This document shows, in pieces, positions 21,469 through 51,487 of a DNA stretch of 59,352 bases. The DNA is from a virus (lineage: Duplodnaviria; Caudoviricetes): the IMG/VR virus record IMGVR_UViG_3300037041_001560, positions 1 to 59,352 of that record; one strand, written 5' to 3'. The position numbers were made by a program, and so were the translations under genes. The notes below the pieces were generated by a model that was not told the origin of the DNA, ran no database searches, and saw only the letters and a list, made by a program, of their open reading frames with translations. Numbering within the stretch: position 1 is the first letter of the stretch; each line of letters begins with the position of its first letter.

Positions 21469-22350
21469 ATGTCGAATAAGTACATATACGTATATCAAAC
21501 CGTTTGCGAACCTAACGGGAAAACATATATCGGAGTACATTCGACAAATAACATTGATGACGGATATATAGGATGTGGCGTTTATAATCAAAAAGACGCT
21601 AAACGTCAGATGTTATTTCACAAAGCTGTAAATAAGAAAGGATATACCTCTTTCCGGAGGTATATCCTTTCTTTTTATGACACCTATGAGGAGGCTTTAG
21701 AAGAGGAGAAATATATTGTTAATGAGGAATGGGTAAAAAATAAATTAAATTACAACACCGCTTTAGGGGGTAGAGGAAACACAACAAAATGGATGGATGA
21801 TGAGCGGAAAGCAAAATGGAAAGAAAACATAAGAACGAAGGTGCTAGAATGGATGGGAAATGGAGGTCTTGAGATTTTACAACAAAAAACCAAAACTCAA
21901 AAAAAGTCAAGAAAATTTGGGGTAAATAATTCTCAATATGGGAAACCATCTCATTTAAGAAGAAAAGTAATAAAATATGATTTAAACAATAATTATATTG
22001 AAACATACGATTCATTACATGACGCTGCTGATAGTGTAAATACTACCCCGGGGAATATAGTTTCTTGTTGTAAAGGCGATTATAAGGTATGCAAAAATCA
22101 TATTTTTAGGTATGAAAAATATAGTGATGACGAATTAAAGGATTTGCAAAAAAAATTAGAAAGGTTTTACTTGCCTAAGTCTTATTGTAGGCCCATTGAT
22201 TGTTACGAAATAAATGGTAAATTTGTAGGGAGATTTATATCTATAAGAGATGCTGCAAAAAAATTAAAAATTACTACAGCATATATAAGTAGAAATTTAT
22301 CTGGTAAAGTAAAAAATTGTAAAGGATATTATTTTAAATACACTAAGTAA
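21469..22350 (+). CDS. GIY-YIG (Seg-like) homing endonuclease with NUMOD1 repeats
   Basis: YVYQTVCEPNGKTYIGVH..DDGYIGCG; KVIKYDLNNNYIETYDSLHDAA; AT-rich. Confidence 0.9.
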   Translation: MSNKYIYVYQTVCEPNGKTYIGVHSTNNIDDGYIGCGVYNQKDAKRQMLFHKAVNKKGYTSFRRYILSFYDTYEEALEEEKYIVNEEWVKNKLNYNTALGGRGNTTKWMDDERKAKWKENIRTKVLEWMGNGGLEILQQKTKTQKKSRKFGVNNSQYGKPSHLRRKVIKYDLNNNYIETYDSLHDAADSVNTTPGNIVSCCKGDYKVCKNHIFRYEKYSDDELKDLQKKLERFYLPKSYCRPIDCYEINGKFVGRFISIRDAAKKLKITTAYISRNLSGKVKNCKGYYFKYTK

Positions 22351-23027
22351 TGGCGTACAATATTGACGATGTATATAATATAGTCCTTTACGCGACAGGG
22401 AAGAATCTACAAAGTGGTTATGTCTCACCTGAAGAATTTAATCTCGTTATCAATCAAGCTGGCCGTAGCTATGCTTCCTACTTGTTAGGGAACTTTCAAC
22501 AATATCAACCGGGAAGACCCCAAGCTAGGGTTGAATTTGGGCAGAACACGGTAGTTCGTCAGCGCTTGACTCCAATTATTTATGGATATAATTTAAGTGT
22601 TGACCCTTCCGGGTTCTCCCCATACCCCGGTGATTATTTACAACAAGACGCTATGTGGAGCTTCTATGGATATAATAGAATCCGGGAAGTGCAGCAACAA
22701 TATTTTTATTCTATTTACAACTCTGTTATTGACCCAGTTGGTGGTTGGCCAGTATATATGCTTGAGTATGATGGATTTCGGTTCTTCCCAAATAATATAA
22801 ACAGAGCTAAATTATCATACGTTAGAAACCCTCCAGATATGATTTGGGGTTATACATTGAACGGGAACGGAATCCCCGTCTACAATCCTGCTTCTAGCAC
22901 ACAACCAGTGTGGGATGACGCTTCAATCCTTGAAATTATTGTGCGAGCTCTTCGTATAATTGGAGTAAATTTGCAATATAACGAAGTGAGCGCATACGCT
23001 AACGAAATAAAACAAGTTGGTCAATAA
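22350..23027 (+). CDS. head-tail adaptor / tail ring protein
   Basis: GYVSPEEFNLVINQA and LSYVRNP motifs; position. Confidence 0.7.
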   Translation: MAYNIDDVYNIVLYATGKNLQSGYVSPEEFNLVINQAGRSYASYLLGNFQQYQPGRPQARVEFGQNTVVRQRLTPIIYGYNLSVDPSGFSPYPGDYLQQDAMWSFYGYNRIREVQQQYFYSIYNSVIDPVGGWPVYMLEYDGFRFFPNNINRAKLSYVRNPPDMIWGYTLNGNGIPVYNPASSTQPVWDDASILEIIVRALRIIGVNLQYNEVSAYANEIKQVGQ

Positions 23028-24691
23028 TGGCAAGCCTTATTCAAGCTACAGTATATCAGATTGATGGCAGTCCTTTAGATTCGCCAATACAAATTTCTTT
23101 TCTTACTAGTGATATAATGATTAAGGAGGCGGTTATTGGCAACATTGCCGAAGTTAATGCCGCTATTTCTTATTACCCAAATACAAATAATAAGCTTCAG
23201 GATAAGGTATTTTATGTTTCTGAAACATTGTCTGATTTGTTAACAGCAGCTAATGTTTGGGACGTAACCCAAGTACAAGCTACTGTTCTTGAAATTAATG
23301 AAGACCCACAAATTCCCGGCGGCGTACAATATACATTTCCCGTGCATAATATTGCCATTTGGGAGGTAACGCCAGAATCAGATGGAGTAAATTCATTTAT
23401 ACAATACAAAAATAAAACATATTCCGTGGCAGAGACTATATCTAATTTAATGGATGCTTCTAATTCTGGTTCAACGCCAGTTGAGGTTACTTTGCCTCCA
23501 GTTTCATCAGATGCTTTTGGTCGGTTAAGAGTTTCTAATCCATTTACATTATTTGATTCTAGCCACAGGTATGATGATAATGATTTATGGTCTTCATTAA
23601 ATTCTACTGGCGCGGCAGAGGTATTTAATGCAAATCAAGGGCTTGTAGATTTGAATGTTACCGCAGCATCTGGTTCTTCTATTGTAAGAGAAACAATAAA
23701 AGTTTTTTCTTACCAGCCCGGAAAGTCGCTTCTTGTAATGAACACGTTTGTAATGAATGCTCCAAAAACGGGACTTACACAGCGTGTTGGATATTATGGG
23801 GCCAGTAATGGTTTTTATTTAGAACAAGCAGGTAGTGCTGTATCTTTTGTAGAAAGAAGCATTGTGACGGGTTCTTTGGTAAATACATCTGTTTTACAAG
23901 CTGATTGGAATGGAGACAAGCTGGACGGAACAGGTGCTTCTGGGTATACTCTTGATTTGACAAAAGCCCAGATTTATTGGATGGATGTTGAGTGGCTTGG
24001 CGTTGGGTCTGTTCGTATGGGATTTGTGATTAATGGTCAGTTTATTATCTGTCATACATTTAACCACGCAAATCTTATCACTAGTACATACATTACAAGC
24101 GCATCATTGCCGCTTCGTTATGAAATATTTAATACCGCTGCAACATCTGGGGCTAGTACTTTAAAGCAAATTTGTTCTACTGTTATATCTGAAGGTGGGT
24201 ATGAACTTAAGGGAATTCAGCAAGCAGTAGCAACAACAATTACAGCTCCTAAGACCTTTGCTGTAGCTGGTACATATTATCCTATGGCGGCCATAAGACT
24301 TAAGTCTACAAGACTTGATGCTATCGTAATTGCAACAGCTATTTCTATTTTAGGTACAGGTAACGGTAAAAATTATCAATGGCGAGTATTGAATGGTGCT
24401 ACAGTCGTAGGAGGAAGTTGGTTGCCAGCTAGTTCTGAATCTTCTGTTGAATATAATCTTACGGGAAGTAGTGCTACGGGAGGAAGAATTTTGGCTAGTG
24501 GATTTATTAATTCATCAAACCAAGGTTCTCCATCAATTAATATTTTAAAAGAAGCTTTGTTTGCTAATCAGTTGGAAAGGAATGGTTTAACAGGTGTAGT
24601 TTATGAGTTTGTTATTGAAATGGCTGTAGGCACAACATCTGGTGGTGAAGGCGCGTTTGTTTCTTTAGACTGGGAAGAAATTAGTAGATAA
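23027..24691 (+). CDS. virion fibre/decoration protein with two N-terminal ~75 aa repeats
   Basis: Tandem repeats then DAFGRLRVSNPFTLFDS beta-rich domain. Confidence 0.7.
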   Translation: MASLIQATVYQIDGSPLDSPIQISFLTSDIMIKEAVIGNIAEVNAAISYYPNTNNKLQDKVFYVSETLSDLLTAANVWDVTQVQATVLEINEDPQIPGGVQYTFPVHNIAIWEVTPESDGVNSFIQYKNKTYSVAETISNLMDASNSGSTPVEVTLPPVSSDAFGRLRVSNPFTLFDSSHRYDDNDLWSSLNSTGAAEVFNANQGLVDLNVTAASGSSIVRETIKVFSYQPGKSLLVMNTFVMNAPKTGLTQRVGYYGASNGFYLEQAGSAVSFVERSIVTGSLVNTSVLQADWNGDKLDGTGASGYTLDLTKAQIYWMDVEWLGVGSVRMGFVINGQFIICHTFNHANLITSTYITSASLPLRYEIFNTAATSGASTLKQICSTVISEGGYELKGIQQAVATTITAPKTFAVAGTYYPMAAIRLKSTRLDAIVIATAISILGTGNGKNYQWRVLNGATVVGGSWLPASSESSVEYNLTGSSATGGRILASGFINSSNQGSPSINILKEALFANQLERNGLTGVVYEFVIEMAVGTTSGGEGAFVSLDWEEISR

Positions 24692-25693: not shown

Positions 25694-26326
25694 ATGACAA
25701 GAGCAGAGTTCATAGAGCGCACCCTTCGCCAGATTTATGGCGGTTATGTATCGGAGGATTCTTCGATTACACCCATGCTTGTAAATTCATGGTTGAATGA
25801 TGCTATTGCTCTTGCTGCAAAGACAAACTATACTGACAACCTTAAGTTGGATGGTATTGGTTATGTAAATAATTCTTTTTATACGACATTTAAGGGAATT
25901 GCTCCCACATTAGACGAAATAAATCTTTGGAAATTGCAGCTTCCTCAGATTCCTGTTGGAATTGGAGCCAATGAGGGAATTAATACCATTGTGTTTAAGG
26001 ACGGAAACGGAACAATTAGTTTCCCATTAATTCCCCTGACTGCAAACCAAAAGACATATTTCCGCTCTATGCGTCCTATCCCAAATAAGACGCTTTATTA
26101 TAATGAGGGGGAATTCGTGTATGTCGTTACTTCCCTAGCATTAAACAACTACACTGCAAGCGTTACAATGGTCAGCGGAGGAGATTCATCAAACCTGAAC
26201 AGCACCCTAAACGTGCCTTCAGATTATTGGCCAGCTATGGTTGCATATGTGCAGCAGCAGTTGATGCTGATGAAAACGACTACTAAGGATTTGGCCTCGG
26301 ACGGGCAAGATTTAGCTATAAACTAA
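25694..26326 (+). CDS. tail ring / connector protein
   Basis: 210 aa, helical N-terminus, tail cluster position. Confidence 0.55.
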   Translation: MTRAEFIERTLRQIYGGYVSEDSSITPMLVNSWLNDAIALAAKTNYTDNLKLDGIGYVNNSFYTTFKGIAPTLDEINLWKLQLPQIPVGIGANEGINTIVFKDGNGTISFPLIPLTANQKTYFRSMRPIPNKTLYYNEGEFVYVVTSLALNNYTASVTMVSGGDSSNLNSTLNVPSDYWPAMVAYVQQQLMLMKTTTKDLASDGQDLAIN

Positions 26327-27141
26327 TGGCATACGTTTACAGACATATAAGGCTTGATAAAAACCAGCCATTTTATATTGGTATTTCTAAAAATGATAAT
26401 TACGGTAATTGCAAAAGGGCTAAATCTTGTACTGGGAGGAATTTTATTTGGAAAAGAATAGTTGATAAAACTGATTATGAGGTTGAGGTAATTATGGATG
26501 GATTAACTTGGGAAGAAGCTAAACAAAAAGAAATAGAATTTATTAAACTTTACGGTAGGTTAAATAGCGGGACTGGTATTTTGTCGAATATGACTGACGG
26601 AGGAGAAGGCGGTCTTGGGGTTGTTGTTAGCGAAATTACTAGAAAGAAGTTAAGCGAAAATTCTAAAAAAAAGGGGATTAGCAAGGAAACTAGGGAAAAG
26701 ATGGCTTCCAAACTTAGGGGTCGCCCATTACCTGATTGGCAAAAAGAATTGCTTAGAAAAGCGGCAATAGGCAAAGATGTATATTGGTCTAAAAAAAAAG
26801 TTGACCAATATGATTTAAATGGGGAATTTGTACAAACATTTAATAGTATTAATGATGCCGCAAGATGTTTGAATCTTCAACAAGCCAATATAGGTAAGGT
26901 ATTAAAAAAGAAAAGAAGTCATACCGGGGGCTATATTTTTGTTTATAGTGGGAAACCTTTTAGCTTAGGTGAATTAACATTTCGCAGAAAAAATGTAAGG
27001 AAAAAGGTTGTAAATTTGGCCACTGGCGAAGTATATGATACCATGTCTGAAGCTGCTAAAAAAAATGGTATAAAATATGATTTTTTTAAACGTATGATGA
27101 AAAAGAAGAATGGCGAATTTGAATATTTATCTGTAAATTAA
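26326..27141 (+). CDS. GIY-YIG-like homing endonuclease with NUMOD3/NUMOD1 repeats
   Basis: YVYRHIRLDKNQPFYIG, NMTDGGEG, SKETREKMA, VDQYDLNGEFVQTFNSINDAA. Confidence 0.9.
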   Translation: MAYVYRHIRLDKNQPFYIGISKNDNYGNCKRAKSCTGRNFIWKRIVDKTDYEVEVIMDGLTWEEAKQKEIEFIKLYGRLNSGTGILSNMTDGGEGGLGVVVSEITRKKLSENSKKKGISKETREKMASKLRGRPLPDWQKELLRKAAIGKDVYWSKKKVDQYDLNGEFVQTFNSINDAARCLNLQQANIGKVLKKKRSHTGGYIFVYSGKPFSLGELTFRRKNVRKKVVNLATGEVYDTMSEAAKKNGIKYDFFKRMMKKKNGEFEYLSVN

Positions 27142-28298: not shown

Positions 28299-28571
28299 AT
28301 GGCACTTTCCGCAATACTTGGTCCGGGTTTGGTTTCGATATATGGTGCGGGAAGTAATACCAGTACTTTGACTGGGACTATTGTGCCCAATAATACTTTC
28401 TTTTTTGGTGTAGTTGACCAGACTTGGAACGGGATACCGGGAAATGTTTCTGTAGGACAATCTGTTCTTTTCCAAGAAAGCGATGTTTTTGCCAGACTAG
28501 TATATAGTGACCAAACATATACTTTAATTCAAGAAGATAAAGTAATTTTGATAGAAGTTACCCCGCCATGA
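28299..28571 (+). CDS. hypothetical protein
   Basis: 90 aa, coupled to muzzle gene. Confidence 0.6.
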   Translation: MALSAILGPGLVSIYGAGSNTSTLTGTIVPNNTFFFGVVDQTWNGIPGNVSVGQSVLFQESDVFARLVYSDQTYTLIQEDKVILIEVTPP

Positions 28572-31500
28572 TAGAAACTAAAAGATTTTCTGGAGTTTTA
28601 AATACGGATGATAAACCGGAAAACGTCGCTGGCCCACAGCACATCGACGCAAAGAATGTTCGTTTCTATGGTGGACCTAATGGATTGACTGCCGAAAATA
28701 TTAAGGGTAATTACTTAATTAATAATGCTAATTTACCAGCGGGAAGTAATGAGTGTATAGGTTCTTTTTTTGATTCAGTTAAACAAAGAATAATTTGGTT
28801 TAACTGGAACAGCAACGGGGATAATGGTATTTATTCTTTGGATTTAGCTACAGATGTTGTTTCAAAGATTTTTCTTTGCGGCACTGATTCTGCTACTGAT
28901 ATACTCAACTTTTCCCCTGATTATCCTGTACATTCTTGTAACGTAGTTTATAGAACCATTGGAGACGGAGACCTTTTGTATTGGACTGATGGTTATAATA
29001 GACCAAGGTATTTGAATATAAGCGGGAGTTTTGTAGGTACTTATGCTCCATTTACAGAGGAAATGATTAATGCTGCAAAAAGTGCACCATTAAGCGAATT
29101 GTCTGTATCATATGGAAGTGATACGAATATTACTGTAAATAATATATTTAATAGGTTTTTTAGATTTGCTTACAGATTTGTTTACGCTAATTTAGAAAAG
29201 TCTACATTATCCCCAACATCAACTTTGGAATTGCCGCCGGGTGGATTTGGTTATAATTTTAACAATTTTATAAATATATCAGGGGTAGCACAACTTAGTG
29301 ATGGTAGTTTAGGCGATATAGTTGCTGTAGAAATATTAGGTCAACAATCTTTAGGCAATACCTTTGGGGATTATTTTTTTATAGCTAAAATAAATAGTAG
29401 TGATTTTGGTTCAGGGAATTCATTCACTTATCGTTTTTTAAATGATTCTTCTTATTCTCCTATTTCATTAGAGGAAAGCGATTTGCCATTTAGTTATTTG
29501 CCAAATAAAGCAAATACTCTTGAATTATTAAATGGTAATGTTTTAATTTATGGAGGGATTACTGATGGTTATAATAACATCCCTCAAAATGATTTAGATG
29601 TTTTAATATATTCTGGGTTATCTTATGGTGTTAATACGCCAGCTGTATCTGCAAATAAAATATCTAATACTAGTGCTGAAGTAATTGTAGGTGGGAATTG
29701 GACGATTGACCCAATGTTGTCTACTGGTGATGCCGAAGTTTCTATAAGATTAAATTGGTTTAATGGAGTATCCCCGCAAACAACTATATTTAACATTGTA
29801 GTTCCAAATGTAAACGTGGACCTTTTTGATGTTACAAATTACATTTGGTCTCAGCTTAACTCTGTTTTATCTGCAAATTTCACTGTTACCCAGAATGGTT
29901 CGTCTACTTCTGGAGATAATTCAAATACTATAAGTATTACTTGCGTTTCCCCAATTGTAATAAATAGTATTTTAGTTACATATGTAGGATATCAAAATGG
30001 TTTTTCTGGTACAGGATTAACGAGTTTGCCAACTCAAAAGTCTATCCCTTGGTCATCTCAATATAGATGGGGTATAATATATTTTGATGAAGTTGGAAAA
30101 ACGAATGGGGTTATTTCTTATTCTGGTTCACAATCTCCGGCAAACAACTTTAATTATGTATCTAGAGATTTTTTAGATGAAGAATCTCCATCAACCCCGG
30201 GAGTTTCTACTGGTGTTCTGATACCCAATATGATGGCTAGTATTAATCATACTCCACCATCATGGGCTAAAAAATTTCAATGGGTACGAACTAAAAACAG
30301 GTCAATTACTAATTATATTCAATTAGTAACTAATGACTTCCAAAATCCGGGTGATGGCTATTTGTATTTTGGAATTCAAAACTTATTGTACACACAAACT
30401 CAAAATACTGGGTTCATACCTAATTATGAGTTTACTGAAGGAGATAGAATAAAGGTGATGGCTAAATACTTCCCCGGTGGAGCTGAAGTTGGAAGGTATA
30501 AACAGCCTTATGCAATTCAATATGATTTTACTATAGAAGGAATAGAAGAAAGAACAATGAATGCCCCTAACACTTCAACTAGTGGAAGAGGTTCTTATGT
30601 AAAAGTTAAAAATATTTTTGGTCTATCTTACACTGATAGATATCAATTTATTCAATTATACACTCCTGTTCTTAGGACTGGTGATAATTTAGATTTTTAT
30701 TACGAATTTGGTGAATCATTTGACATATTTGAAGTTTCTGGTCAAAAGTATCACGCAGGGAATTTAACTGACCAAGATTCAACTCAACCAGCTACATTTA
30801 TATTTTTTGATGGTGGTAGCTACTATCGTAACAGACTTGTATATAGAAATGCTGGTGTTACTACTCCTTTGGTTGAAACATCTGTAATGAGTGAGAGTTA
30901 TAATGATTATTTCCAAAGCGGGGTTAACTCTGATTCTAGAACGTGGGCAGTTGATGCCAATGCAAGAGAAGAATATAATTCAGTATTAGTTCGTTGGGGT
31001 GGGAAATATCAAAGTGGTACTAATATAAATAACTTAAATATTTTTAGGCCAAATGATTTTGATGAGGTAGATAGGTCTAAGGGCGACATCCAAAGATTTA
31101 AATCAAGAGATAGGATTTTGCGCGTATTCCAAGACCGGGGAACTGGTCAGTATGGAGTATATATGCGCTTTATATCAAATAACCAAGGTCAACAAGAATT
31201 GGTTACTACGAATGAGATTATCACAACAAACAATATCCAATACTATCAAGGCGTTTATGGATTATCAGGATATCCAACAAACTTGGTTAGCACTCAAAAT
31301 TCTGACTATTTTGTAGATGTAGTAACTGGACGTGCTATTAGGCTTGGGGGAAATGGTCTTACAGACTTGGGTCTTGCGTATAAAGGGCAATTCTATCTTA
31401 GCCAATTAGTACTTCCATACAATAAAGACATAGTAAGGTCTGGAGGATTTAAGTCTAAGGTGATGGGCTTTTTCGATTATTTCGATAATCAGTATAATGT

Positions 31501-32368
31501 ATTACTTCAGGGAAGTGTTAGCGACTTTGTAATTAATTCACAGGCTTCAGGGCAAGTAGGTACTTATGAATTATCACTAGCGGGAAATCCCAAAACCGGA
31601 GATGTGATATCATTACAATTGACTGATAGTTTATCTACTACACAAACATATTCGTATACTGCTGTTATAGGTGATACTGCAATAGATATGCTAAATGGTT
31701 TGTTGGCGGATATAAATGGTGGAGTTGATTTCGTTGCTACATTTATTAGCGCTTCCCCATATTCAAACATAGAAGTAGTATCTGCATATCCATTGATAAC
31801 GGTTGAGGGAATTGCTAGCATAACCTATAACACCTCTGGAGACATAAACCCGCATAACTTTAGTTTTAACGAAACAAGAAACGGGTTCTGCTCTTTCTAT
31901 GACTTCAACCCAGAATGGGCCACAGGAGCTAATGACATGGTTTATACTTGGGAAAATGGGCTTCTCTGGAAACATGATAGCAATACTTATTGCAATTTCT
32001 ACGGAGACCAGTATTCGGCCTACTTGACCGCCGTTTTCAACAATAATTTGTTGCTTAAAAAGTCTTGGCATAGCATAAACGAGATTGCAAGCGGTACATG
32101 GGCGGTTCCCCTAATGTATACCAATACCAAATCCTACGGGAACCAAAGACAAGAATCTAGCCTTGTAGACGCAGAATTTACTATTTTGGAAGGGAATCCG
32201 TCATCTGCCGTCAAAAGGGATGCCAATTCCCAAGGCGGAAAAATAAACGGAGATTTCATAAAAGGCAACTATTTAGTTGCTAAATTTGAGAAACAAAATG
32301 CTTCAAATTATATAACTTTGTCAGAGGTTTCTATCCGAACCACGGATAGCCCATTGACAGCAAAATAA
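28568..32368 (+). CDS. tail muzzle / stabilization protein
   Basis: FSGVLNTDD..HIDAKNVR, LLYWTDGYNRPR.LN, FAYRFVY, SFYDFNPE, G.YL C-terminus typical of crAss-like muzzle proteins. Confidence 0.8.
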   Translation: MIETKRFSGVLNTDDKPENVAGPQHIDAKNVRFYGGPNGLTAENIKGNYLINNANLPAGSNECIGSFFDSVKQRIIWFNWNSNGDNGIYSLDLATDVVSKIFLCGTDSATDILNFSPDYPVHSCNVVYRTIGDGDLLYWTDGYNRPRYLNISGSFVGTYAPFTEEMINAAKSAPLSELSVSYGSDTNITVNNIFNRFFRFAYRFVYANLEKSTLSPTSTLELPPGGFGYNFNNFINISGVAQLSDGSLGDIVAVEILGQQSLGNTFGDYFFIAKINSSDFGSGNSFTYRFLNDSSYSPISLEESDLPFSYLPNKANTLELLNGNVLIYGGITDGYNNIPQNDLDVLIYSGLSYGVNTPAVSANKISNTSAEVIVGGNWTIDPMLSTGDAEVSIRLNWFNGVSPQTTIFNIVVPNVNVDLFDVTNYIWSQLNSVLSANFTVTQNGSSTSGDNSNTISITCVSPIVINSILVTYVGYQNGFSGTGLTSLPTQKSIPWSSQYRWGIIYFDEVGKTNGVISYSGSQSPANNFNYVSRDFLDEESPSTPGVSTGVLIPNMMASINHTPPSWAKKFQWVRTKNRSITNYIQLVTNDFQNPGDGYLYFGIQNLLYTQTQNTGFIPNYEFTEGDRIKVMAKYFPGGAEVGRYKQPYAIQYDFTIEGIEERTMNAPNTSTSGRGSYVKVKNIFGLSYTDRYQFIQLYTPVLRTGDNLDFYYEFGESFDIFEVSGQKYHAGNLTDQDSTQPATFIFFDGGSYYRNRLVYRNAGVTTPLVETSVMSESYNDYFQSGVNSDSRTWAVDANAREEYNSVLVRWGGKYQSGTNINNLNIFRPNDFDEVDRSKGDIQRFKSRDRILRVFQDRGTGQYGVYMRFISNNQGQQELVTTNEIITTNNIQYYQGVYGLSGYPTNLVSTQNSDYFVDVVTGRAIRLGGNGLTDLGLAYKGQFYLSQLVLPYNKDIVRSGGFKSKVMGFFDYFDNQYNVLLQGSVSDFVINSQASGQVGTYELSLAGNPKTGDVISLQLTDSLSTTQTYSYTAVIGDTAIDMLNGLLADINGGVDFVATFISASPYSNIEVVSAYPLITVEGIASITYNTSGDINPHNFSFNETRNGFCSFYDFNPEWATGANDMVYTWENGLLWKHDSNTYCNFYGDQYSAYLTAVFNNNLLLKKSWHSINEIASGTWAVPLMYTNTKSYGNQRQESSLVDAEFTILEGNPSSAVKRDANSQGGKINGDFIKGNYLVAKFEKQNASNYITLSEVSIRTTDSPLTAK

Positions 32369-43372: not shown

Positions 43373-43900
43373 ATGCCATTAGTTCCCAATTTTTCAACTA
43401 GTCAATCAGCGGGGAGCCCTTCTGTTATAACTATAACTGATACGTCCACGGGAAGTGATGTTGCTGTTACCCAGCGCCGAGTCTATCTTTTGGACTGGCA
43501 GGGGAATTATGTCGTTCCTTCAGGTACTACTACTAACTATATCCAATGGCCTATCGCACAAGCGACAATTAATATTGATTGCTTGACTCAAGATATGGCT
43601 TTGGAGGTGACCGTTGAATGGTTGAACGTAAGCAATGTGGCTTTGTATGATAAGACTGAATTGGTAGGATTTACTCTTTACAATGAGACTTTCTACTATG
43701 CCCTGACGCAAGCACAAGCTGCTGCTTCAACTCCCACAACTATCCTACAAGATACGTCATTCCTGCAAAATAAGTCTAATCTTCGTTTGTTTATTGATAG
43801 CGGGAATCAAGCAGTCACGCTGGGATACGATATCGTATCTGCTCAGCAGTGCTATAACTTGGCTACCAACTTAAATACTAACCAAGACCTCTATTACTAA
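43373..43900 (+). CDS. tail hub / fibre adaptor protein
   Basis: ITITDTSTGSD motif; follows TAATTTTG promoter-like element. Confidence 0.55.
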   Translation: MPLVPNFSTSQSAGSPSVITITDTSTGSDVAVTQRRVYLLDWQGNYVVPSGTTTNYIQWPIAQATINIDCLTQDMALEVTVEWLNVSNVALYDKTELVGFTLYNETFYYALTQAQAAASTPTTILQDTSFLQNKSNLRLFIDSGNQAVTLGYDIVSAQQCYNLATNLNTNQDLYY

Positions 43901-44421
43901 TGCCACTAACAGTAGCCCAGATAATTGACATTGCCAAGATATCGCAGTATCTGGCGCAGAATGATGTTCTGAAGGGAAATCTTTTCTCTCCTCCTGTGGC
44001 TAGAACTACGCCGCAGATTCTTTATTTAGAGCGCAAGGCAGTAGAATGGATGTACAATATTGACCCAGCGAACACTTCCCTTGTACAAACCTCTCAATAT
44101 CTATACAGCCTTTGCAGAGGATATAATTTGCAAGCACAACAAATTTCGGGAACTGCTGGTGCAATATCTCCAGTCGTCCCTGCTCAGATTCCAAATCCAT
44201 ATGATTTTGAAGTAACAGCTAGTTCGTTGATTGCAGATGGTCAATCAACTGTTACGTTAAATGCATTTATAGGATTCAACGTATTATTTGTTCGCAACGG
44301 AATACCTCAATCTACTATCAATACTGGGGGAAGCTACTACTCTTGGGTAAAGGCTACTGGTGTATTTACCATTTCCCCGGCAGCGGTATTAGGAGAAAGT
44401 TTTGCCATATACCCAATTTAA
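43900..44421 (+). CDS. tail-associated structural protein
   Basis: TAATG-coupled 173 aa ORF. Confidence 0.55.
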   Translation: MPLTVAQIIDIAKISQYLAQNDVLKGNLFSPPVARTTPQILYLERKAVEWMYNIDPANTSLVQTSQYLYSLCRGYNLQAQQISGTAGAISPVVPAQIPNPYDFEVTASSLIADGQSTVTLNAFIGFNVLFVRNGIPQSTINTGGSYYSWVKATGVFTISPAAVLGESFAIYPI

Positions 44422-45176
44422 TGGATTCATTGTTAAATGATATAAAACATTGGGTTATCTACAAAATAACCAGTCCAACCGAAAGAGTTTATATAGGCAA
44501 AACGTCTAATTGGAATAATAGATATTCTAATTATAAGCACTTTACGGTAGCAAAACAAGTTCATAAACAAAGAATGTTGTATGCATCTTTGCTAAAATAC
44601 GGGTTCGAATCTCATAAATTAGAAAAAATAGATGAATTTGATTCTGATGCAAATTATTGTTCAGGGAAGGAGATGTTTTGGATAAGGTCTTATATGTCAA
44701 ATAACTGTAAATATCCAGAAATTGGTGGGATGAATTTGACTGATGGTGGTGATGGTAATCTTGGATGGAAAAGACCCAAAGAGAGTATTGAAGAAATAAG
44801 AAAAAAAAATACAGGTAAGGTTAGGTCAAAAGAAATTAGAGAAAAAATGTCTAAAAGTAAAATAGGCAATAAAAATGGTTGTGGTAAAAAATTAACAGAA
44901 GAGCATAAAAGAATTTTATCAGAATGTAATAAAAATAAAAAAGGAGATATTAAGTTTAAAAAAACGTGTAAAGATAGGGCTGCAAGAATAAACAATCAAA
45001 ATGGAAAGATAATAATACATTTAGACGAACATAATAATATAATTAATACATTTGATTTTTTATATGAAGCAGCATATTTTTTTGAAGTATCTGAAAGTGC
45101 AATGAGAGATTATATCAATAAAAAAAGAGTGTCTAAAAAAATAAGTGCCATTTTGAAATATAAAAAAGATTTGTGA
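44421..45176 (+). CDS. GIY-YIG homing endonuclease with NUMOD3 repeats
   Basis: VIYKITSPTERVYIGKT, NLTDGGDG, SKEIREKMSKSKIG; ATG at 44421. Confidence 0.9.
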   Translation: MDSLLNDIKHWVIYKITSPTERVYIGKTSNWNNRYSNYKHFTVAKQVHKQRMLYASLLKYGFESHKLEKIDEFDSDANYCSGKEMFWIRSYMSNNCKYPEIGGMNLTDGGDGNLGWKRPKESIEEIRKKNTGKVRSKEIREKMSKSKIGNKNGCGKKLTEEHKRILSECNKNKKGDIKFKKTCKDRAARINNQNGKIIIHLDEHNNIINTFDFLYEAAYFFEVSESAMRDYINKKRVSKKISAILKYKKDL

Positions 45177-47854
45177 TGAAGAAAATATTCTTACTTATTC
45201 TTGGGTTCGTAATGTTTAAGGTGGGGTATTCGCAATACCCCATTCAACAATTTATTGGGGCCGACAGCGCTGTTGTCACCTCTAAGGGTGGTATGCAGGG
45301 TCGTTTTATAAACGTAGTTTTCCCAGATACTACTACTGCCAATTCCCAACGGATACGTCAATATGCCGGGGCTATGATTTATGCCGCAGGGAAGTTGTGG
45401 GTCAGAAACACCACAGCTACTGGATGGAATGAATTGGCTTACAACATTACACCTGTAAATATTTACAATTCAAACGGTTCCCTAACATCAAACAGAACAC
45501 TTGATGGAAATGGATATAGCCTGACATTTGACCAAATTGGCGGGGAATTCGGGGTGGGAGCTGATAGTATTAATTTTGCTCCTGCTTCAGGTAAATTTAG
45601 AATAAGTACCTTAAATCAGGGAATAGGTACTAAAGCTTTACGATATAACCCAGTAACAAAACTTATTACATATTCTGATACAACAAGTTCTGTAAATATT
45701 TATAATTCAGATGGTACTCTTACGGGAAATCGTGAACTTGATGGGGATGGCAATAATCTTACTTTTACAGCAGTAAATAAATTTGAGTTTTCGGGTGATA
45801 GCCTTTATTATTTTCTTGACCCAGCGGGGAACTTAAGGATAAAGCTCGGTAATCAGCAGCTTACTATGCAGGGTGACACGGCTTCCCTTTCTAGAAGAAT
45901 ATCTTACACAGGAAATCTTGGTTCTTCATTTACTAAACATAGCATTGTAGATAAAAATTATGTGGATAGTGTAGCTTCCGTGGCTTCTGGAACTGTTACC
46001 TCTGTGGCTACCAACAACGGAACAGGAATAACAGGAGGGACCATTACAACTACGGGTACTCTTGCCATTGATACTGCCCTTATTTCAACCCGTGCTTGGC
46101 GACAAAAAGGAATTGATAGTGTCACTTCCCTCATCAATGCAAGACCATCAGGCTCAGGAACTACCAACTATATTCCTAAGTGGACAAGTTCAACTGCATT
46201 GGGGAATTCACAGATATTTGATAATGGAACTAACGTAGGAATAGGTATTACTTCGCCAAGTGCAAGACTTCACGTTCAAAATGGTGCATTGACATCTACT
46301 GTTACTTGGAATGCAGCAGATGGTGTAATAATATCAGGAACAAATTTTGGTGGTTTGCAGCTTCAGTCACCAAGTGGAAGTGGCGAAGGTTTTATAGGAT
46401 TTTCAAGTGCATCTGTTAGAAATTTCGGCTTTATACAATATAGCAATTCTACACATAGGATGTCATTTGCGACATCAACAGACGGCTCCTCGTCAGGTAC
46501 TACCAAAATGCAAATAACGCAATCTGGGCGATTACTTTTGGGAACTACGACCGAATCGACTTATTTGCTCGATGTCAACGGAACTGCAAGAGTTCGTGAA
46601 TATCTCTATATGGTGCGTCAAGATGGTGCTGCAACTATTGATGCTTTGAGATATGTAACAGGGGGAACTATTGACATAGGAACTACATTTAGGGTACTCG
46701 GAACAAATTCATGGAACAACACAACATCTTCAACATCATATATTCAAAACGGATATACTACTAAAAACTTTGTTTCAACACCAAGTCAAAACGGTTCCTT
46801 TTCTTCTTTTGATTTTTCAAATTCAGGTCCATTTTCTCCAACAATCCCTAACCCATACACGCAAAAGTTGATAAATGGTGCAATGACTATAAATAGCACT
46901 GCCGCAACAAATAGTTTTCACGGTATTTCTATATCTGCAACAGACAATTCATCATCAATTGCAAACAATGTTTTTGCAGTATATGCTGATGCCACACTTG
47001 GAACAAATACTTCTGCAACTCGTTGGGCAGGGTATTTTGTTGGGAATGGATATTTTAGCGGAAACGTAGGTATAGGTACTACTTCCCCATCTTACAAGTT
47101 AGATGTCAACGGAACTGCAAGATTCAGCGGAACAGAACTGCGTTTGGATAACGGAACAACAGGAACACTTAACATCTATTCAAATACTCCATCGATTCAG
47201 TTTTTTAGTGCAGACCCAACTGGTTATCGGTTTTACAGGTCAGGAACTGGAATGTTTTGGAATTCAGCTGGAAGTATAGCTACACAAATATCAGGCAATG
47301 ATGCATATACTTTGGATGCATCAGTTGGACATATTTGGAGAACTGCTTTAAGTGGTGGTGCTGCAACTGCAAGATTGACAACTGGCGGAAATTTAATCGT
47401 CGGCGGAACAACAGATGCGGGATATCGTGCCGATATTCAGGGAACTTTTAGAAGCAACCACAATGGATACGGTATTGTATTAACAAGCACAACGGGTAAC
47501 AGATTGCGATGGATTGACAATGGCACATTTCGTTGGGCAATAGGTAGCCAAACTATACAAGGAGGAGAACTTGCAAATAGTTTTAATTTTTATAGTGGAA
47601 CAAATAGTGCGACACAAGTTTCAATTGCAGCAGATGGGGCAGTTATGATAGGAGTACCTTTCCCAATTTCATCAAACTATGCACCATCAGCAATTTTACA
47701 AGCAGCAAGCACAACAAGAGGTTTCTTACCTCCTAGAATGACCAATGCACAAATGGTGGCAATCGCATCCCCAGCCGCTGGGTTGGTTGTTTACGATACC
47801 ACAAACAATAAGTTGAATGTTTACGATGGAACGAATTGGGTAACACTTCACTAA
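45176..47854 (+). CDS. tail fibre-like protein with N-terminal signal peptide
   Basis: SGTVTSVAT, GTTNYIPKWT, NVGIGTTSPS.KLDVNG fibre repeats; MKKIFLLILGFVMFKVGYSQ N-terminus. Confidence 0.8.
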   Translation: MKKIFLLILGFVMFKVGYSQYPIQQFIGADSAVVTSKGGMQGRFINVVFPDTTTANSQRIRQYAGAMIYAAGKLWVRNTTATGWNELAYNITPVNIYNSNGSLTSNRTLDGNGYSLTFDQIGGEFGVGADSINFAPASGKFRISTLNQGIGTKALRYNPVTKLITYSDTTSSVNIYNSDGTLTGNRELDGDGNNLTFTAVNKFEFSGDSLYYFLDPAGNLRIKLGNQQLTMQGDTASLSRRISYTGNLGSSFTKHSIVDKNYVDSVASVASGTVTSVATNNGTGITGGTITTTGTLAIDTALISTRAWRQKGIDSVTSLINARPSGSGTTNYIPKWTSSTALGNSQIFDNGTNVGIGITSPSARLHVQNGALTSTVTWNAADGVIISGTNFGGLQLQSPSGSGEGFIGFSSASVRNFGFIQYSNSTHRMSFATSTDGSSSGTTKMQITQSGRLLLGTTTESTYLLDVNGTARVREYLYMVRQDGAATIDALRYVTGGTIDIGTTFRVLGTNSWNNTTSSTSYIQNGYTTKNFVSTPSQNGSFSSFDFSNSGPFSPTIPNPYTQKLINGAMTINSTAATNSFHGISISATDNSSSIANNVFAVYADATLGTNTSATRWAGYFVGNGYFSGNVGIGTTSPSYKLDVNGTARFSGTELRLDNGTTGTLNIYSNTPSIQFFSADPTGYRFYRSGTGMFWNSAGSIATQISGNDAYTLDASVGHIWRTALSGGAATARLTTGGNLIVGGTTDAGYRADIQGTFRSNHNGYGIVLTSTTGNRLRWIDNGTFRWAIGSQTIQGGELANSFNFYSGTNSATQVSIAADGAVMIGVPFPISSNYAPSAILQAASTTRGFLPPRMTNAQMVAIASPAAGLVVYDTTNNKLNVYDGTNWVTLH

Positions 47855-47903
47855 TTAAAATAAAATCCTTAATTTTACACCATAAAACCCTTAATTTAGA
47901 ACC

Positions 47904-48281
47904 ATGAAAAAGTTAATGTTAGTATTGGGAATTGTTTGTTTTGGACTGGTAGGGAAGTCGCAAACCATTGACTCAACTGTAACCAGCATTACGGCTGTAT
48001 ACATTCAGCCTATCAAAGCTCAGTTCACCGATTCCCTTCTTTCAACAAATCTTGGAGTACGGGTTATTTCCGATGACCTCAAGACTACCGCTATTTTGTA
48101 TTGGGAATTGCTTATGTCCAATGGAGCCGTATCCGTAAACGGAAACTATACCATGACTGGAGCGGACTATACTGCTTGGTGCAACGCATCAAACCCAGTT
48201 CCCTGCAACATTTGGCCTTTCACCGTAGTTGGGAAAGCATACAATCTCACCTTTACCTCTGGCCCTGCATCCAAGAAATAA
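47904..48281 (+). CDS. fibre-associated protein with signal peptide
   Basis: MKKLMLVLGIVCFGLVGKSQ; IQPI...DDLKTTAILYWEL...GNYTMTGADYTAW. Confidence 0.65.
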   Translation: MKKLMLVLGIVCFGLVGKSQTIDSTVTSITAVYIQPIKAQFTDSLLSTNLGVRVISDDLKTTAILYWELLMSNGAVSVNGNYTMTGADYTAWCNASNPVPCNIWPFTVVGKAYNLTFTSGPASKK

Positions 48282-48306
48282 AAATTAAAAACTAAACAAT
48301 AAACAA

Positions 48307-48561
48307 ATGAAAATCACAACAAAAATTGGTCTTTTAGTTTGCCTTTTGGCTTTTGTACTAAGTTCTTTTGCCTTCAAAGGGCAAGAAGAACCCAAGACTC
48401 TGAAATTTGAATTTACTTTGGAAGAGGTGAATGTTATTTTCGAAGGACTTGGGGAATTGCCTGCAAAAAAATCAGAAGCTCTTCGCGGTAAGATTTATCA
48501 AACTGCACAAGAACAATTAAAAGCTCAAGAACAACCTCAATCACTTCCCAAGAAAAACTAA
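48307..48561 (+). CDS. fibre chaperone-like protein with signal peptide
   Basis: MKITTKIGLLVCLLAFVLSSFA; FTLEEVNVIFEGLGELP...KI..Q helical motif. Confidence 0.6.
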   Translation: MKITTKIGLLVCLLAFVLSSFAFKGQEEPKTLKFEFTLEEVNVIFEGLGELPAKKSEALRGKIYQTAQEQLKAQEQPQSLPKKN

Positions 48562-48753: not shown

Positions 48754-49067
48754 ATTACACTAATTTAGTATTGTTTGCCCTCGGATTGTTCGGAATCTTA
48801 ATCCATAACCTGATTAAGGTTGATACAATCAATCGCCAATCTGAAGGTCACTTTAACTTTAAGAAGTTTATTTCTTTGGAGTGGCCATCAATTGCCATCA
48901 GTTTTTCAGTTGTTGGTGTATGCTTGATTGCCAAACACGAAGTGAAGCAACTTGAAGAAGTAGGGAACTGGCTGGGCTTGGCCTTCGTTACAATCGGGTA
49001 CACAGCTCAATCAATTGTATATAAATACTTGGGAAATGCTGAAAAGAAAATAAAAGGAGATGCATAA
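48750..49067 (+). CDS. holin candidate
   Basis: Three hydrophobic segments, in lysis cluster. Confidence 0.6.
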   Translation: MNYTNLVLFALGLFGILIHNLIKVDTINRQSEGHFNFKKFISLEWPSIAISFSVVGVCLIAKHEVKQLEEVGNWLGLAFVTIGYTAQSIVYKYLGNAEKKIKGDA

Positions 49068-49605
49068 TCGTGGGCTGATATACCTCATCATTTCAATAGT
49101 ATGTTTTTTTATTGCAACCAGTTGTAATACAGAAAAACGTCTTCAAAAGGCAGAGGTATTATTAGCTTCAAAGGGCCGTTTACCAGAAGTTTGTGCGGCT
49201 CGATTTCCCCCTAAAGATTCAATTGTATACCGAGATAGCATAAAGTATGATACCCTATATGAGGGTATTTATAGTATTGATACTATCTACGACAAGGATA
49301 CTGTAAAAGTTTACTTGACACTTCCAGCTAAAGTCGTAACAAAAGAAGTCATAAAATATCGAGATATATATCGGGAAAACACGGCTAAAGTAAATGAGTT
49401 AGAAAATAAATTGTCTGCGTGCAATTCCCAATCTGCAAATTACTCAATAGAAATAGTAAAATTACGCGCTGAATCTAGTAAATGGGAGAAGCTAGCTAAA
49501 CAAAGATGGTGGTTCCTTTGGATTTTATTAGTCGTTGCTGGATTAATTACTTTTCGCAAGAGCATAATGAAATTAATTAGCAGATTTATATTGCCTTGGA
49601 CATGA
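49060..49605 (+). CDS. spanin, unimolecular topology
   Basis: Lipobox IATSC, coiled coil, C-terminal TM WWFLWILLVVAGLITF. Confidence 0.7.
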   Translation: MHNRGLIYLIISIVCFFIATSCNTEKRLQKAEVLLASKGRLPEVCAARFPPKDSIVYRDSIKYDTLYEGIYSIDTIYDKDTVKVYLTLPAKVVTKEVIKYRDIYRENTAKVNELENKLSACNSQSANYSIEIVKLRAESSKWEKLAKQRWWFLWILLVVAGLITFRKSIMKLISRFILPWT

Positions 49606-50210
49606 TTGACTTGAGCACATTGGAACATCGACTTCCGAAGCATGTAATGGATGAACTTCCCGACACAATCGCTAAGTTCAATATCAATACCCCACTTCGG
49701 TTAGCACACTTTCTGTCTCAATGCGCACATGAGTCAGGAAGTTTTTCTGTTAATAGGGAAAATCTAAGCTACTCCGCAGACCGACTTCGTGTCGTATTCC
49801 CTAAATACTTCCCCACCCCTGAAGTAGCAAAACAATACGAAAGGAATCAGGTTAAGATTGGTAGCAGAGTATATGCAAACCGCATGGGAAATGGTGACGA
49901 GAAGTCAGAAGACGGATACAAGTTCCGCGGACGTGGGTATATCCAACTTACAGGCAAAGATAATTATACAGCCTTCGGAAAGTTTGTAGCTGAGGACATA
50001 GTAAACAATCCAGAACTAGTTGCATCCAAATATTCTCTCATGTCAGCAGCTTGGTTCTTCGATAAGAATAACCTATGGAAGATGTGTGATGTTGGTGCTG
50101 GGGAAGATGTGGTAAAGAACCTTACCAAACGAATCAATGGCGGTCTGCATGGACTTGATGACAGGTTGAAGAAATTCAAAATGTATCTGAGCTTTGTTCA
50201 GCCAAAGTAG
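49602..50210 (+). CDS. endolysin, glycoside hydrolase family 19
   Basis: RLAHFLSQCAHESG, ENLSYS, FRGRGYIQLTGKDNY, TKRINGGLHGLDDR. Confidence 0.93.
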   Translation: MIDLSTLEHRLPKHVMDELPDTIAKFNINTPLRLAHFLSQCAHESGSFSVNRENLSYSADRLRVVFPKYFPTPEVAKQYERNQVKIGSRVYANRMGNGDEKSEDGYKFRGRGYIQLTGKDNYTAFGKFVAEDIVNNPELVASKYSLMSAAWFFDKNNLWKMCDVGAGEDVVKNLTKRINGGLHGLDDRLKKFKMYLSFVQPK

Positions 50211-50499
50211 TATATGGGTTGTTTCTTTTGCTGTTATATTCAGCATGGTATTCGTGGGCTTGTCGGTTCACTATGTAAACAAACTCTTCGCTTCCCACAC
50301 CAAAGACCTACTGGTCCGTTTTATATTAATCATATTCGCATCACTAGTTGCGGTGTTTATCATTGACAAAGTAGTAGCGTTTAAGATTCCTTTGCTAACT
50401 GATAAGCAAAACGATGAATTGTTCGACCTCATCAAGACCCTGACCTTGATGATTTTTTCGTATTATTTTGGCTCTCAGAAGAATTCCAAGCCAGACTAA
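50194..50499 (+). CDS. membrane protein (start uncertain)
   Basis: Three hydrophobic segments ending IFSYYFGS, holin-like. Confidence 0.6.
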   Translation: MFSQSSIWVVSFAVIFSMVFVGLSVHYVNKLFASHTKDLLVRFILIIFASLVAVFIIDKVVAFKIPLLTDKQNDELFDLIKTLTLMIFSYYFGSQKNSKPD

Positions 50500-50554: not shown

Positions 50555-51487
50555 ATGCCTAAAATATTAATAACGGGTGGGGCTGGTTTCATTGGCTCAC
50601 ACCTTTGTGACAGATTTGTAAAGGAAGGATACGATGTGATTGCGATGGATAATTTATTGACGGGAAGTCTTGATAACATAAGCCACCTCTTCCCCCGTCC
50701 CAACTTCACCTTCCACCACCACGACGTAACCAAGTTCATCCATATACCGGGTGACCTTGACTACATTCTGCACTTCGCCTCCCCCGCTTCCCCCGTAGAC
50801 TACCTAAAGATGCCCATCCAGACCATGAAGGTCGGCTCCTTGGGTACACACAACTGCCTCGGATTGGCTAAAGACAAGGGCGCGAGAATCGTTGTGGCGA
50901 GCACTAGCGAAGTCTATGGAGACCCGCTTGTCCATCCGCAGACCGAAGACTACTGGGGGAACGTCAACCCCATCGGTCCAAGAGGGGTATACGATGAGGC
51001 GAAAAGATTTCAGGAAGCCATGACCATGGCATATCATACATACCACGGGGTGAATACGGGAATTGTTCGCATCTTCAATACCTATGGACCACGGATGCGC
51101 CTAAACGATGGACGGGCACTTCCCGCCTTCATATCCCAAGCCATAAAGGGAGAACCCCTGACCATATTTGGGGACGGCTCACAGACCCGTAGCTTCTGCT
51201 ACGTGGATGATTTGGTGGAGGGAATCTACCGCTTGCTACTCAGCGACCACCACTTCCCCATAAACGTAGGCAATCCGCAAGAGATTACCATCAACGAATT
51301 CGCAAAAGAAATCTTAGCCCTGACGGGAAGTTACAAGGGAGTCGAATACCACCCGCTTCCCACCGATGACCCAAAACAACGGAAGCCCGACATCTCCAAG
51401 GCGAAGGAACTGCTCGGATGGGAACCAAAGGTTTCCCGCCCCCTCGGATTAGCCCTGACCTATCAATACTTTAAGAACAAACATTGA
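50555..51487 (+). CDS. UDP-glucuronate decarboxylase (UDP-xylose synthase-like SDR)
   Basis: [55 protein letters not shown]. Confidence 0.92.

Follow-up and report, generated by a model that had tools for sequence, protein, structure and literature searches.

The virus record IMGVR_UViG_3300037041_001560, analyzed here over its whole length of 59,352 bases and referred to as the window, is classed as linear and about 83% complete, and is the genome of a crAss-like podophage of Bacteroidota. One module of this genome encodes a tail-fibre-like protein of 892 amino acids (aa), a 125-aa helper protein (p125) and an 84-aa protein (p84). We report herein that the fibre and p125 begin with leaders of the host type that end immediately before a Gln, and that the sequences of both proteins and of their relatives make export through the Sec pathway of the host very probable. 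The 892-aa protein has, in our estimate, an even chance of being the receptor-binding tail fibre of this phage, synthesised as a precursor that carries a Sec signal peptide of the host type. In the reading that suits the sequences best, fibre and helper would be exported to the periplasm, where they would be processed and probably glycosylated, and the fibre would join the particle after the holin has opened the membrane; we judge the probabilities for and against this reading to be balanced.

A preliminary description of the same DNA suggested that all three proteins of the module carry Sec-type signal peptides, and that the fibres either fold in the periplasm and join virions at lysis or serve as receptor blockers in the envelope. 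The positions and N-termini that it gave for the three open reading frames (ORFs) are exact, and the gene order confirms that the module lies directly before the lysis cassette. Its interpretation in terms of export holds in part: for the fibre and the second protein, export is well supported by the leaders, the residue after the cleavage site, the glycosylation motifs and the co-variation of the two genes, all of which are described below. The leaders of these two proteins are canonical; the hydrophobic N-terminus of p84 may be either a leader or a membrane anchor.

The fibre precursor starts at the ATG at 45176, which shares one base with the stop codon of the GIY-YIG ORF before it (end 45176), and its first residues are MKKIFLLILGFVMFKVGYS, followed by Gln. 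The leader has two Lys residues in its n-region, an uncharged hydrophobic core of 11 residues, small residues at -3 and -1 (G.S) and Gln at +1. It is kept in all ten relatives that were aligned, the starts of which follow the pattern M(I)KK(I/L)F.L, a variable hydrophobic core, and S(Y/F)(S/A)↓Q(G)YP, where the arrow marks the predicted cleavage site. K2, K3, F5, L7, Q20, Y21 and P22 are invariant, and a charged residue occurs in the core of none of the ten. A hydrophobicity heuristic of our own making, applied to six-frame ORFs, flagged 33 of them, mostly short antisense or alternative-frame ORFs and one cytoplasmic epimerase; the heuristic alone is therefore not specific, and conservation is the stronger evidence. 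Among the long genes of the window, leader-like N-termini are confined to the fibre, p125, p84, the 145-aa gene at 3080-3517 (minus strand) and the membrane proteins of the lysis cassette.

In the public protein set, the window fibre (P0001, 880 aa) begins at Met13, as do 7 of the 120 homologues listed. Calls at an internal Met hide leaders in this manner, and the leader of the fibre is for that reason partly concealed in protein databases. The same calls are the ground for supposing that Met13 or a later codon is the real start, and that the presumed leader is untranslated or merely part of the overlap with the endonuclease gene. We regard such an artefact as most improbable. Met13 lies inside the hydrophobic core, residues 2, 3, 5 and 7 are invariant in the ten relatives, and no start at Gln20 or beyond occurs among the 120 homologues listed. 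Moreover, two relatives (L001 and L002) have Val instead of Met at position 13, and their next Met, near residue 40, falls inside the conserved mature domain; these two have neither the upstream endonuclease nor a gene overlap, yet they retain a full leader directly after the stop of the preceding gene, p173. Because they keep the leader without Met13, a start downstream of the hydrophobic segment, which would have undone the original proposal, is excluded.

Substrates of Sec and signal peptidase I in Bacteroidota follow a Q-rule, with Gln exposed by the cleavage (PMC5837995, PMC10653852; partial texts). That Gln directly follows the predicted cleavage site in the fibre and p125 had been noted before; the sequences are as then described, and the Gln is kept in relatives. 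In total, 831 homologues of the fibre were found with E<=0.001, and leader counts refer to the 120 that were listed. Sixty-five of these bear a leader, 7 start at the equivalent of Met13, 15 do not start with Met, and 33 are leaderless, although three of the last (P0059, P0070 and P0080) look like cut-off members of leader-bearing groups. The leaderless homologues have classical fibre starts. Gln follows a small-x-small site in every one of the 65 leader-bearing homologues, and the N-terminal regions of these proteins, when clustered at >=30% identity, fall into three separate groups; by eye, at least five different mature starts can be told apart among the homologues listed.

A second line of evidence comes from the exported part itself. 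Bacteroidota glycosylate non-cytoplasmic proteins in the periplasm at the motif D-(S/T)-(hydrophobic) (PMC12871550, with the motif also in PMC8550257; partial texts). This motif was counted as D[ST][AILVMT] and compared with shuffles of each protein (1000 for proteins of the window). The fibre contains 10 motifs where 3.6 are expected, a number reached by none of 1000 shuffles; those in the N-terminal third lie at residues 30, 51, 130, 168, 208, 234, 264, 299 and 314, and the motif at residue 30 is kept in ten of ten relatives and that at 299 in eight of ten. The spanin-like lipoprotein of the lysis cassette, a periplasmic internal control, has 5 motifs versus 0.39 expected (0/1000 shuffles), p125 has 2 versus 0.46 (74/1000 shuffles reach that number), and p84 has none. 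The 26 leaderless window proteins tested contain 20 motifs in total versus about 30.8 expected (sum of rows).

The same division is seen among the homologues. The 65 leader-bearing homologues together hold 687 motifs versus 265 expected (2.6-fold), with the excess concentrated in the first 350 residues (474 versus 96, or 4.95-fold) as compared with the rest (212 versus 162, or 1.31-fold), whereas 30 leaderless homologues hold 35 versus 93 expected (0.38-fold). Control motifs in the leader-bearing set are not enriched, with observed-to-expected ratios of 0.56 for E[ST]h, 0.83 for N[ST]h, 1.16 for the reversed motif and 0.55 for D[ST] followed by a non-hydrophobic residue (h denotes a hydrophobic residue). 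Each of the three leader-bearing clusters is enriched by 2.3- to 3.05-fold, and none of 500 shuffles reaches the observed count of its representative. On these counts, the fibre is probably a substrate of the general O-glycosylation system of the host. The preliminary description did not touch on this motif signal. It resembles the known Q-rule and O-glycosylation substrates of Bacteroidota in leader architecture, in Gln at +1 and in the enrichment of D-(S/T)-(hydrophobic) in the exported part, and differs from them in that those are envelope proteins of the host, while the features are found here on a viral fibre and its helper. The word 'phage' is absent from the available part of the glycosylation review (PMC12871550).

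The gene that follows the fibre carries a leader of its own. The N-terminus of p125 reads MKKLMLVLGIVCFGLVGKS, followed by Gln, with two Lys, an uncharged core of 13 residues and the site G-K-S↓Q. Its family comprises 2243 homologues with E<=0.001, all of them unnamed; among the best 120 of these, 118 have a leader-like start and 115 have the glycosylation motif within residues 16-50. A helper with a leader and a short Q-T-(I)-D-(S/T)-T linker follows a leader-bearing fibre in the window and in L001, L025, L031, L033, L034, L035 and L036. After leaderless fibres, in L051, L054, L055, L056, L086 and L116, the helper lacks both the leader and the linker and begins exactly at the conserved core. 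Fibre and helper thus agree in all 14 pairs (8 with both leaders, 6 with neither, 0 mixed), for which the hypergeometric chance would be about 1 in 3000 if the pairs were independent, which they are not. Left out of the 14 were L024, in which upstream extensions on both ORFs make the starts ambiguous, and L016 and L081/L082, which are cut by contig ends. In related loci, the gene after the fibre can also belong to another family, of leaderless proteins of 109-119 aa that start with MAI(I/V)Y.., found after both leader-bearing and leaderless fibres (L003, L021, L122 and L092).

These three observations bear on the possibility that the fibre is not exported at all, but folds in the cytoplasm, with the hydrophobic segment tethering it to the membrane for a time or lying buried as a helix where the fibre attaches to the tail, retained or otherwise proteolysed; inefficient export would also come under this heading. 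Such a scheme would keep assembly in the cytoplasm, as in textbooks, and an AlphaFold2 model of fibre residues 1-330 (10-row alignment) draws residues 2-17 as a lone helix, although its mean pLDDT (predicted local distance difference test) of 45 makes the model of the N-terminus too poor for a fold search. In addition, capsid proteins with predicted leaders in phages of Porphyromonas gingivalis were read by the authors as substrates of a prohead protease (PMC10367356; partial text). Nonetheless, a buried helix would not account for the Gln found at +1 in all 65 leader-bearing homologues, which span three N-terminal clusters, for the enrichment of a motif used only outside the cytoplasm, or for a helper that gains and loses its leader together with the fibre, and we consider cytoplasmic folding improbable.

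What p125 does can be approached from the fibre with which it travels. Fibre residues 628-892 have homologous counterparts in L001, L034, L036, L054 and L056, all with a p125 homologue after the fibre gene; in L035 and L082, only the last 56-79 fibre residues are alike, and a p125 homologue is again next, while L025 and L033 show no detectable likeness to the C-terminus of the window fibre. In lambda (Stf/Tfa) and T4 (gp37/gp38), a classical fibre is followed by a downstream assembly chaperone or tip protein that acts in the cytoplasm. Like those partners, p125 is encoded by a small gene right after the fibre and accompanies the C-terminus of the fibre across phage types; unlike them, it has no detectable likeness in sequence or fold to a named family. 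A factor of exclusion acting in the envelope would not exist in a cytoplasmic form, and a protein acting on the fibre must follow the fibre wherever it folds; p125 is therefore read, from its sequence and distribution, as a putative fibre chaperone or tip partner.

The AlphaFold2 model of p125 has a mean pLDDT of 79.5, with blocks of 84-96 over residues 31-120, and consists of a small beta-sheet and two helices. No match to p125 was found in Pfam, PHROG or NCBIfam, nor did Foldseek find one to its model in PDB with E<=0.001; a wide VIA search gave a best Z of 4.3 (phiKZ gp37), which is within the noise range, and matches in BFVD were to unnamed phage proteins only. A complex prediction with three copies of fibre residues 628-892 and mature p125 scored 0.00, which gives no verdict either way on binding. 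Two other identities were considered for p125. That of a lipoprotein was rejected, since Cys12 is not kept in homologues and the predicted cut is before Gln, not Cys. A superinfection-exclusion lipoprotein of the T5 Llp/Cor kind, an identity considered for p84 as well, was likewise discarded: 8 of 16 aligned members of the p125 family are leaderless, and the lipobox is absent.

Whether the exported fibre ends up in the particle is a separate matter. Its N-terminal domain is constant within a lineage, and the remainder is mosaic, with lengths from 654 to 2324 aa among complete ORFs; a constant N-terminus joined to exchangeable distal parts is what one sees in proteins that dock on a given tail. 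The leader-bearing fibre of siphovirus-like phages occupies the usual slot of the receptor-binding protein. On contigs of about 23-34 kb of this kind (L035 and L039), it stands right after the tape-measure and distal-tail genes and is directly followed by a small leader-bearing protein; the genes that come next in L039 are one for a spanin-like lipoprotein and another small one in the position of the endolysin. On the sequences, the same fibre-plus-helper module is seen in unrelated siphovirus-like phages.

Direct matches of the fibre in cultured phages cover only its last 55-102 residues and are to unnamed proteins; the tip also occurs in a cyanophage and in uncultured phages. A leaderless homologue (P0031) has its middle part in common with proteins annotated as tail fibres in cultured Roseobacter, Pelagibacter and Achromobacter phages. 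At the C-terminal tip, matches to Mtd_N and DUF2793 are weak and below threshold, and PF26696, precomputed for fibre homologues, has no match in Pfam scans of the window fibre even at E<=10.

That proteins with leaders encoded at this place of the genome reach particles is best supported, by analogy, by Cellulophaga phage phi18:3. Its gp085, gp086 and gp087 (547, 785 and 559 aa) have leaders ending in ..GYS↓Q, ..VSA↓Q and ..LNA↓Q. Their genes immediately precede those for the membrane proteins and the glycosyl hydrolase of the lysis region, and each protein is entered in the GenBank record as 'structural protein, based on experimental MS/MS proteomics analysis' (MS/MS, tandem mass spectrometry). 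The window resembles phi18:3 in having host-type leaders with Gln at +1 in proteins encoded before the lysis region, and the portals of the two phages share 22.6% identity over 52% of the query; the three phi18:3 proteins have no detectable sequence likeness to the window fibre. We put the odds that the fibre is a virion part added at or after lysis at about even; both its membership of the virion and the time of its attachment are inferred.

Alternatively, the fibre-like protein might be exported without ever becoming part of the particle. In the envelope, it could mask or destroy receptors, and so serve superinfection exclusion or keep progeny from sticking to debris, or it could aid exit, while other proteins would be the true receptor-binding parts of the virion. 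Export itself is well supported, the gene adjoins the lysis cassette, and the phage has further large virion proteins, among them the 1266-aa muzzle-like and 554-aa structural proteins. One siphovirus-like phage (L116) has a short leader-bearing protein besides a leaderless fibre. Exported proteins are encoded next to tail genes in T5 (Llp) and in lambda (Lom). Furthermore, Q-rule proteins of P. gingivalis phages have been proposed as modifiers of the host envelope (PMC10367356; partial text). These proteins resemble the proteins of the window in being Bacteroidota phage genes with leaders that expose Gln, and differ from them in that the set consists of five genes of unknown function read as host-surface modifiers, with 'tail fiber' not in the available text (same source).

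Several observations nonetheless speak for the particle rather than the envelope, and we hold the envelope role to be rather unlikely. The lineage-fixed N-terminal domain with exchangeable remainder, the receptor-binding-protein slot in siphovirus-like phages and the MS/MS record of the leader-bearing phi18:3 proteins in the same slot all count against it. The window encodes no other fibre-like gene: in agreement with the preliminary description, which called this the only long fibre of its type, no second fibre paralogue was found, the best other match having E=0.1. Finally, the fibre has no lipobox, and no family of C-terminal domains of the type IX secretion system is among its Pfam and NCBIfam matches, even with E up to 10, that could carry the protein beyond the periplasm. 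Folding in the periplasm with joining to virions at lysis therefore fits better than a receptor blocker, because the helper also exists without a leader beside leaderless fibres and because the leader-bearing proteins of phi18:3 are recorded as virion proteins.

Under the reading preferred here, in which fibres mature in the periplasm and are added to particles, the following course of events may be envisaged. Sec would export the fibre and p125, signal peptidase I would cut before Gln20, and the new N-terminus would be cyclised to pyroglutamate by the glutaminyl cyclase of the host. The fibre and the linker of the helper would then be glycosylated by the host general O-glycosylation system. 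Still in the periplasm, the fibre would form trimers, and p125 would act at the C-terminal region of the fibre, either as a chaperone or as a partner of the tip. In the most speculative step, fibreless particles built in the cytoplasm would meet the fibres only after the holin has made large holes, in the dying cell or in the lysate, and the lineage-specific N-terminal domain (about residues 20-95) would then dock on the tail. The endolysin of the window has a hydrophilic N-terminus without a leader or membrane segment, and thus needs holin holes to reach the wall; such dependence on large holin lesions is compatible with the mixing of particles and periplasmic fibres at that time or in the lysate.

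A number of points weigh against this course of events. Particles of tailed phages are assembled in the cytoplasm, and an exported fibre consequently poses a problem of topology that only the proposed step after holin opening would solve. Leaders are not universal in related Bacteroidota phages, as the Elemovirus fibres and gp29 of Polaribacter phage P12002L are leaderless. The leaderless proteins of 109-119 aa follow leader-bearing fibres in L003, L021 and L122, so that not every gene adjacent to such a fibre is exported. L116 (4058-9176) encodes a leader-bearing protein of 381 aa, the N-terminus of which is of the fibre type, together with a homologue of p84 and a small membrane protein, and further on a leaderless 834-aa fibre with a leaderless p125-like helper; as it holds both forms, both routes may coexist in one phage. 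No likeness of p125 to known fibre chaperones is detectable by sequence or fold. As to glycosylation, 9 of the 10 fibre motifs lie in the first 314 residues, with one in the C-terminal 560, and the motif counts come from related sequences and are hence not independent. The phi18:3 proteins, moreover, are below chance in motifs, with 1 each versus 3.0-3.7 expected; since leader-bearing proteins can be motif-poor, glycosylation is not a general companion of the leader, and export and glycosylation are kept apart here.

Extended beyond the window, the proposal would be that in many Bacteroidota phages fibres and their dedicated helpers are exported by Sec, capped with pyroglutamate, given the species-specific O-glycan of the host, folded in the periplasm and joined to particles when the holin opens, with the cassettes shared between podo-like and sipho-like phages. 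We advance this generalisation only tentatively, as somewhat less probable than its opposite. A search of open-access papers and bioRxiv preprints brought up no account of tailed phages whose tail fibres are exported by Sec, an absence that is not proof, and a paper on Bacteroides phages reports that the target proteins of its phage diversity-generating retroelements have no signal peptides (PMC6199706). A cellular parallel is that of the mosaic adhesive trimer (MAT) fibres of Bdellovibrio bacteriovorus, which form trimers like phage tail fibres and show that such fibres can be made via Sec (PMC10769870; partial text). As in the window fibre, a signal peptide is followed by a conserved beta-rich domain and mosaic distal parts; unlike it, MAT fibres, likened here by their description only, are cellular proteins that a predatory bacterium carries on its own surface (same source).

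If fibres do mature in the periplasm, they would represent a new assembly route, and the timing of the holin would gain a new role, as against particles made wholly in the cytoplasm according to textbooks. Fibre modules would then move between podo-like and sipho-like phages as cassettes of leader-bearing fibre and leader-bearing helper, and such fibres would be expected to misfold or to lack modifications when expressed in the cytoplasm of Escherichia coli. If the host glycosylates the fibre, the organ with which the phage recognizes its host would carry a glycan coat made by the host; Bacteroidota phages, including the abundant crAss-like phages of the gut, would bear host-specific sugars on the part that decides host range, with possible effects on stability, protease resistance and immune recognition. 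The leader together with the motif could also mark uncultured phages as having a Bacteroidota host.

Table 1. Positions of the fibre module, its neighbours and other identified genes in the window
Feature	Position	Strand	Remarks
Primase-helicase and replication protein		-	
Large terminase	11712-13775		
Portal	13847-16297		
1266-aa muzzle-like protein	28568-32368	+	Pfam crAss_MUZ E=3.3e-13, crAss_MUZ_C E=5.7e-5; match at both ends
p175	43373..43900	+	Leaderless, conserved; always two genes before fibre in lineage
p173	43900..44421	+	Leaderless, conserved; directly before fibre gene or endonuclease insert
GIY-YIG homing endonuclease	44421..45176	+	phrog_314 E=1e-15; Pfam GIY-YIG E=2.9e-4, just under cut-off
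Tail-fibre-like protein, 892 aa	45176..47854	+	Putative precursor with N-terminal leader; 0 Cys
Fibre signal peptide, residues 1-19	45176..45232	+	Predicted cleavage before Gln20 (G-Y-S↓Q)
Fibre, mature N-terminal third, residues 20-330	45233..46165	+	Lineage-specific domain at about residues 20-95; 9 of 10 glycosylation motifs
Fibre C-terminal region, residues 628-892	47057..47851	+	Conserved tip; co-occurs with p125 family
p125, 125 aa	47904..48281	+	Leader residues 1-19, predicted cleavage before Gln20; motif-bearing linker Q-T-I-D-S-T
p84, 84 aa	48307..48561	+	Hydrophobic N-terminus (leader or membrane anchor), charged helical tail
Two small membrane proteins, 60 and 105 aa	48571..49067	+	Holin-like by position; hydrophobic segments; 95-97% identical in L001
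Unimolecular-spanin-like protein	49060..49605	+	Leader of the lipoprotein type (..ATS↓C) and C-terminal membrane span, both in the same chain
Endolysin, glycoside hydrolase family 19 type	49596..50210	+	phrog_181 E=3.7e-68; Pfam Glyco_hydro_19 E=1.6e-8

The third protein of the module, p84 (Table 1), begins with MKITTKIGLLVCLLAFVLSSFA, and its hydrophobic stretch is 17 residues long; its homologues read ...SFTT↓QEPKT, which would place Phe at -3 if cleavage took place before Gln. The long stretch and the Phe at -3 leave the choice between a cleaved leader and an uncleaved signal anchor. Homologues of 63-85 aa occur in both phage types (L001, L003, L006, L009, L024, L027, L031, L033-L036 and L116), beside leader-bearing fibres and usually just before a small single-span membrane protein, and p84 has no match in Pfam, PHROG or NCBIfam. 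The earlier idea that this third protein is chaperone-like found no support; p84 tracks the small membrane protein after it, and it is p125 that tracks the C-terminus of the fibre. The 60- and 105-aa membrane proteins have only weak family matches. Homologues of the spanin-like protein follow the fibre module in 6 related loci.

Upstream of the fibre, nine related virus contigs have the same gene order, in which the giant protein is followed by p175, p173, sometimes an endonuclease, and the fibre. Both p175 (61-100% identity) and p173 (61-95% identity) are syntenic in all nine related loci, and neither has a match in Pfam, PHROG or NCBIfam; p175 likewise has no counterpart in cultured phages. 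Look-alikes in the ESM Atlas, weak and similar to immunoglobulin or PKD domains in the case of p175, score <0.9 for both proteins and are leads only. It is possible that p175 is a part of the tail or an adaptor. The endonuclease gene between p173 and the fibre is absent in L001, L002, L005, L015, L020, L021 and L025 and present in L010 and L019 (as two ORFs in L019); L001 has a GIY-YIG-like gene downstream of the fibre instead. The window has three homing-endonuclease genes that split the row of structural genes (21469-22350, 26326-27141 and 44421-45176, all on the plus strand); they match phrog_314, and two are also of the HNH type.

By the match of the 1266-aa protein to the crassvirus muzzle, this 59-kb phage groups with the crAss-like phages in tail architecture, although the terminase and portal are nearest, among cultured phages, to those of podophages of Flavobacterium (Elemovirus) and Cellulophaga (phi38:1, and Pachyviridae such as phi18:3), with 21-27% identity. 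The window also encodes several virion proteins and a giant protein of 2998 aa, followed by the fibre module and then the lysis cassette; no tRNA genes were found in it. One virion protein of 554 aa (23027-24691, plus strand) matches 'virion structural proteins' of T4-like cyanophages and Puniceispirillum phage HMO-2011, with 59-64% identity across about 70-76% of its length. It is far closer to cultured phages than any other gene of this phage, which points to transfer across host phyla.

Beyond the endolysin, and separated from it by one gene for a small membrane protein (50194-50499), lies a gene for a nucleotide-sugar epimerase/dehydratase (50555-51487, plus strand; Pfam GDP_Man_Dehyd E=3.6e-50, Epimerase E=1.6e-48). 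The G+C content of this stretch is 0.46 compared with about 0.37, and an enzyme of sugar-nucleotide metabolism thus adjoins a module that possibly depends on glycosylation by the host. That the right end with its higher G+C content is prophage or host DNA was considered and rejected, as RusA, DUF932 and a PD-(D/E)XK protein are encoded there and the record is that of a viral contig. In the early/replication region, a 145-aa protein (3080-3517, minus strand) has neither a family match nor a glycosylation motif. It has a clean leader ending in ..INA↓Q, and may, to judge from this leader, be an exported early protein such as an exclusion factor.

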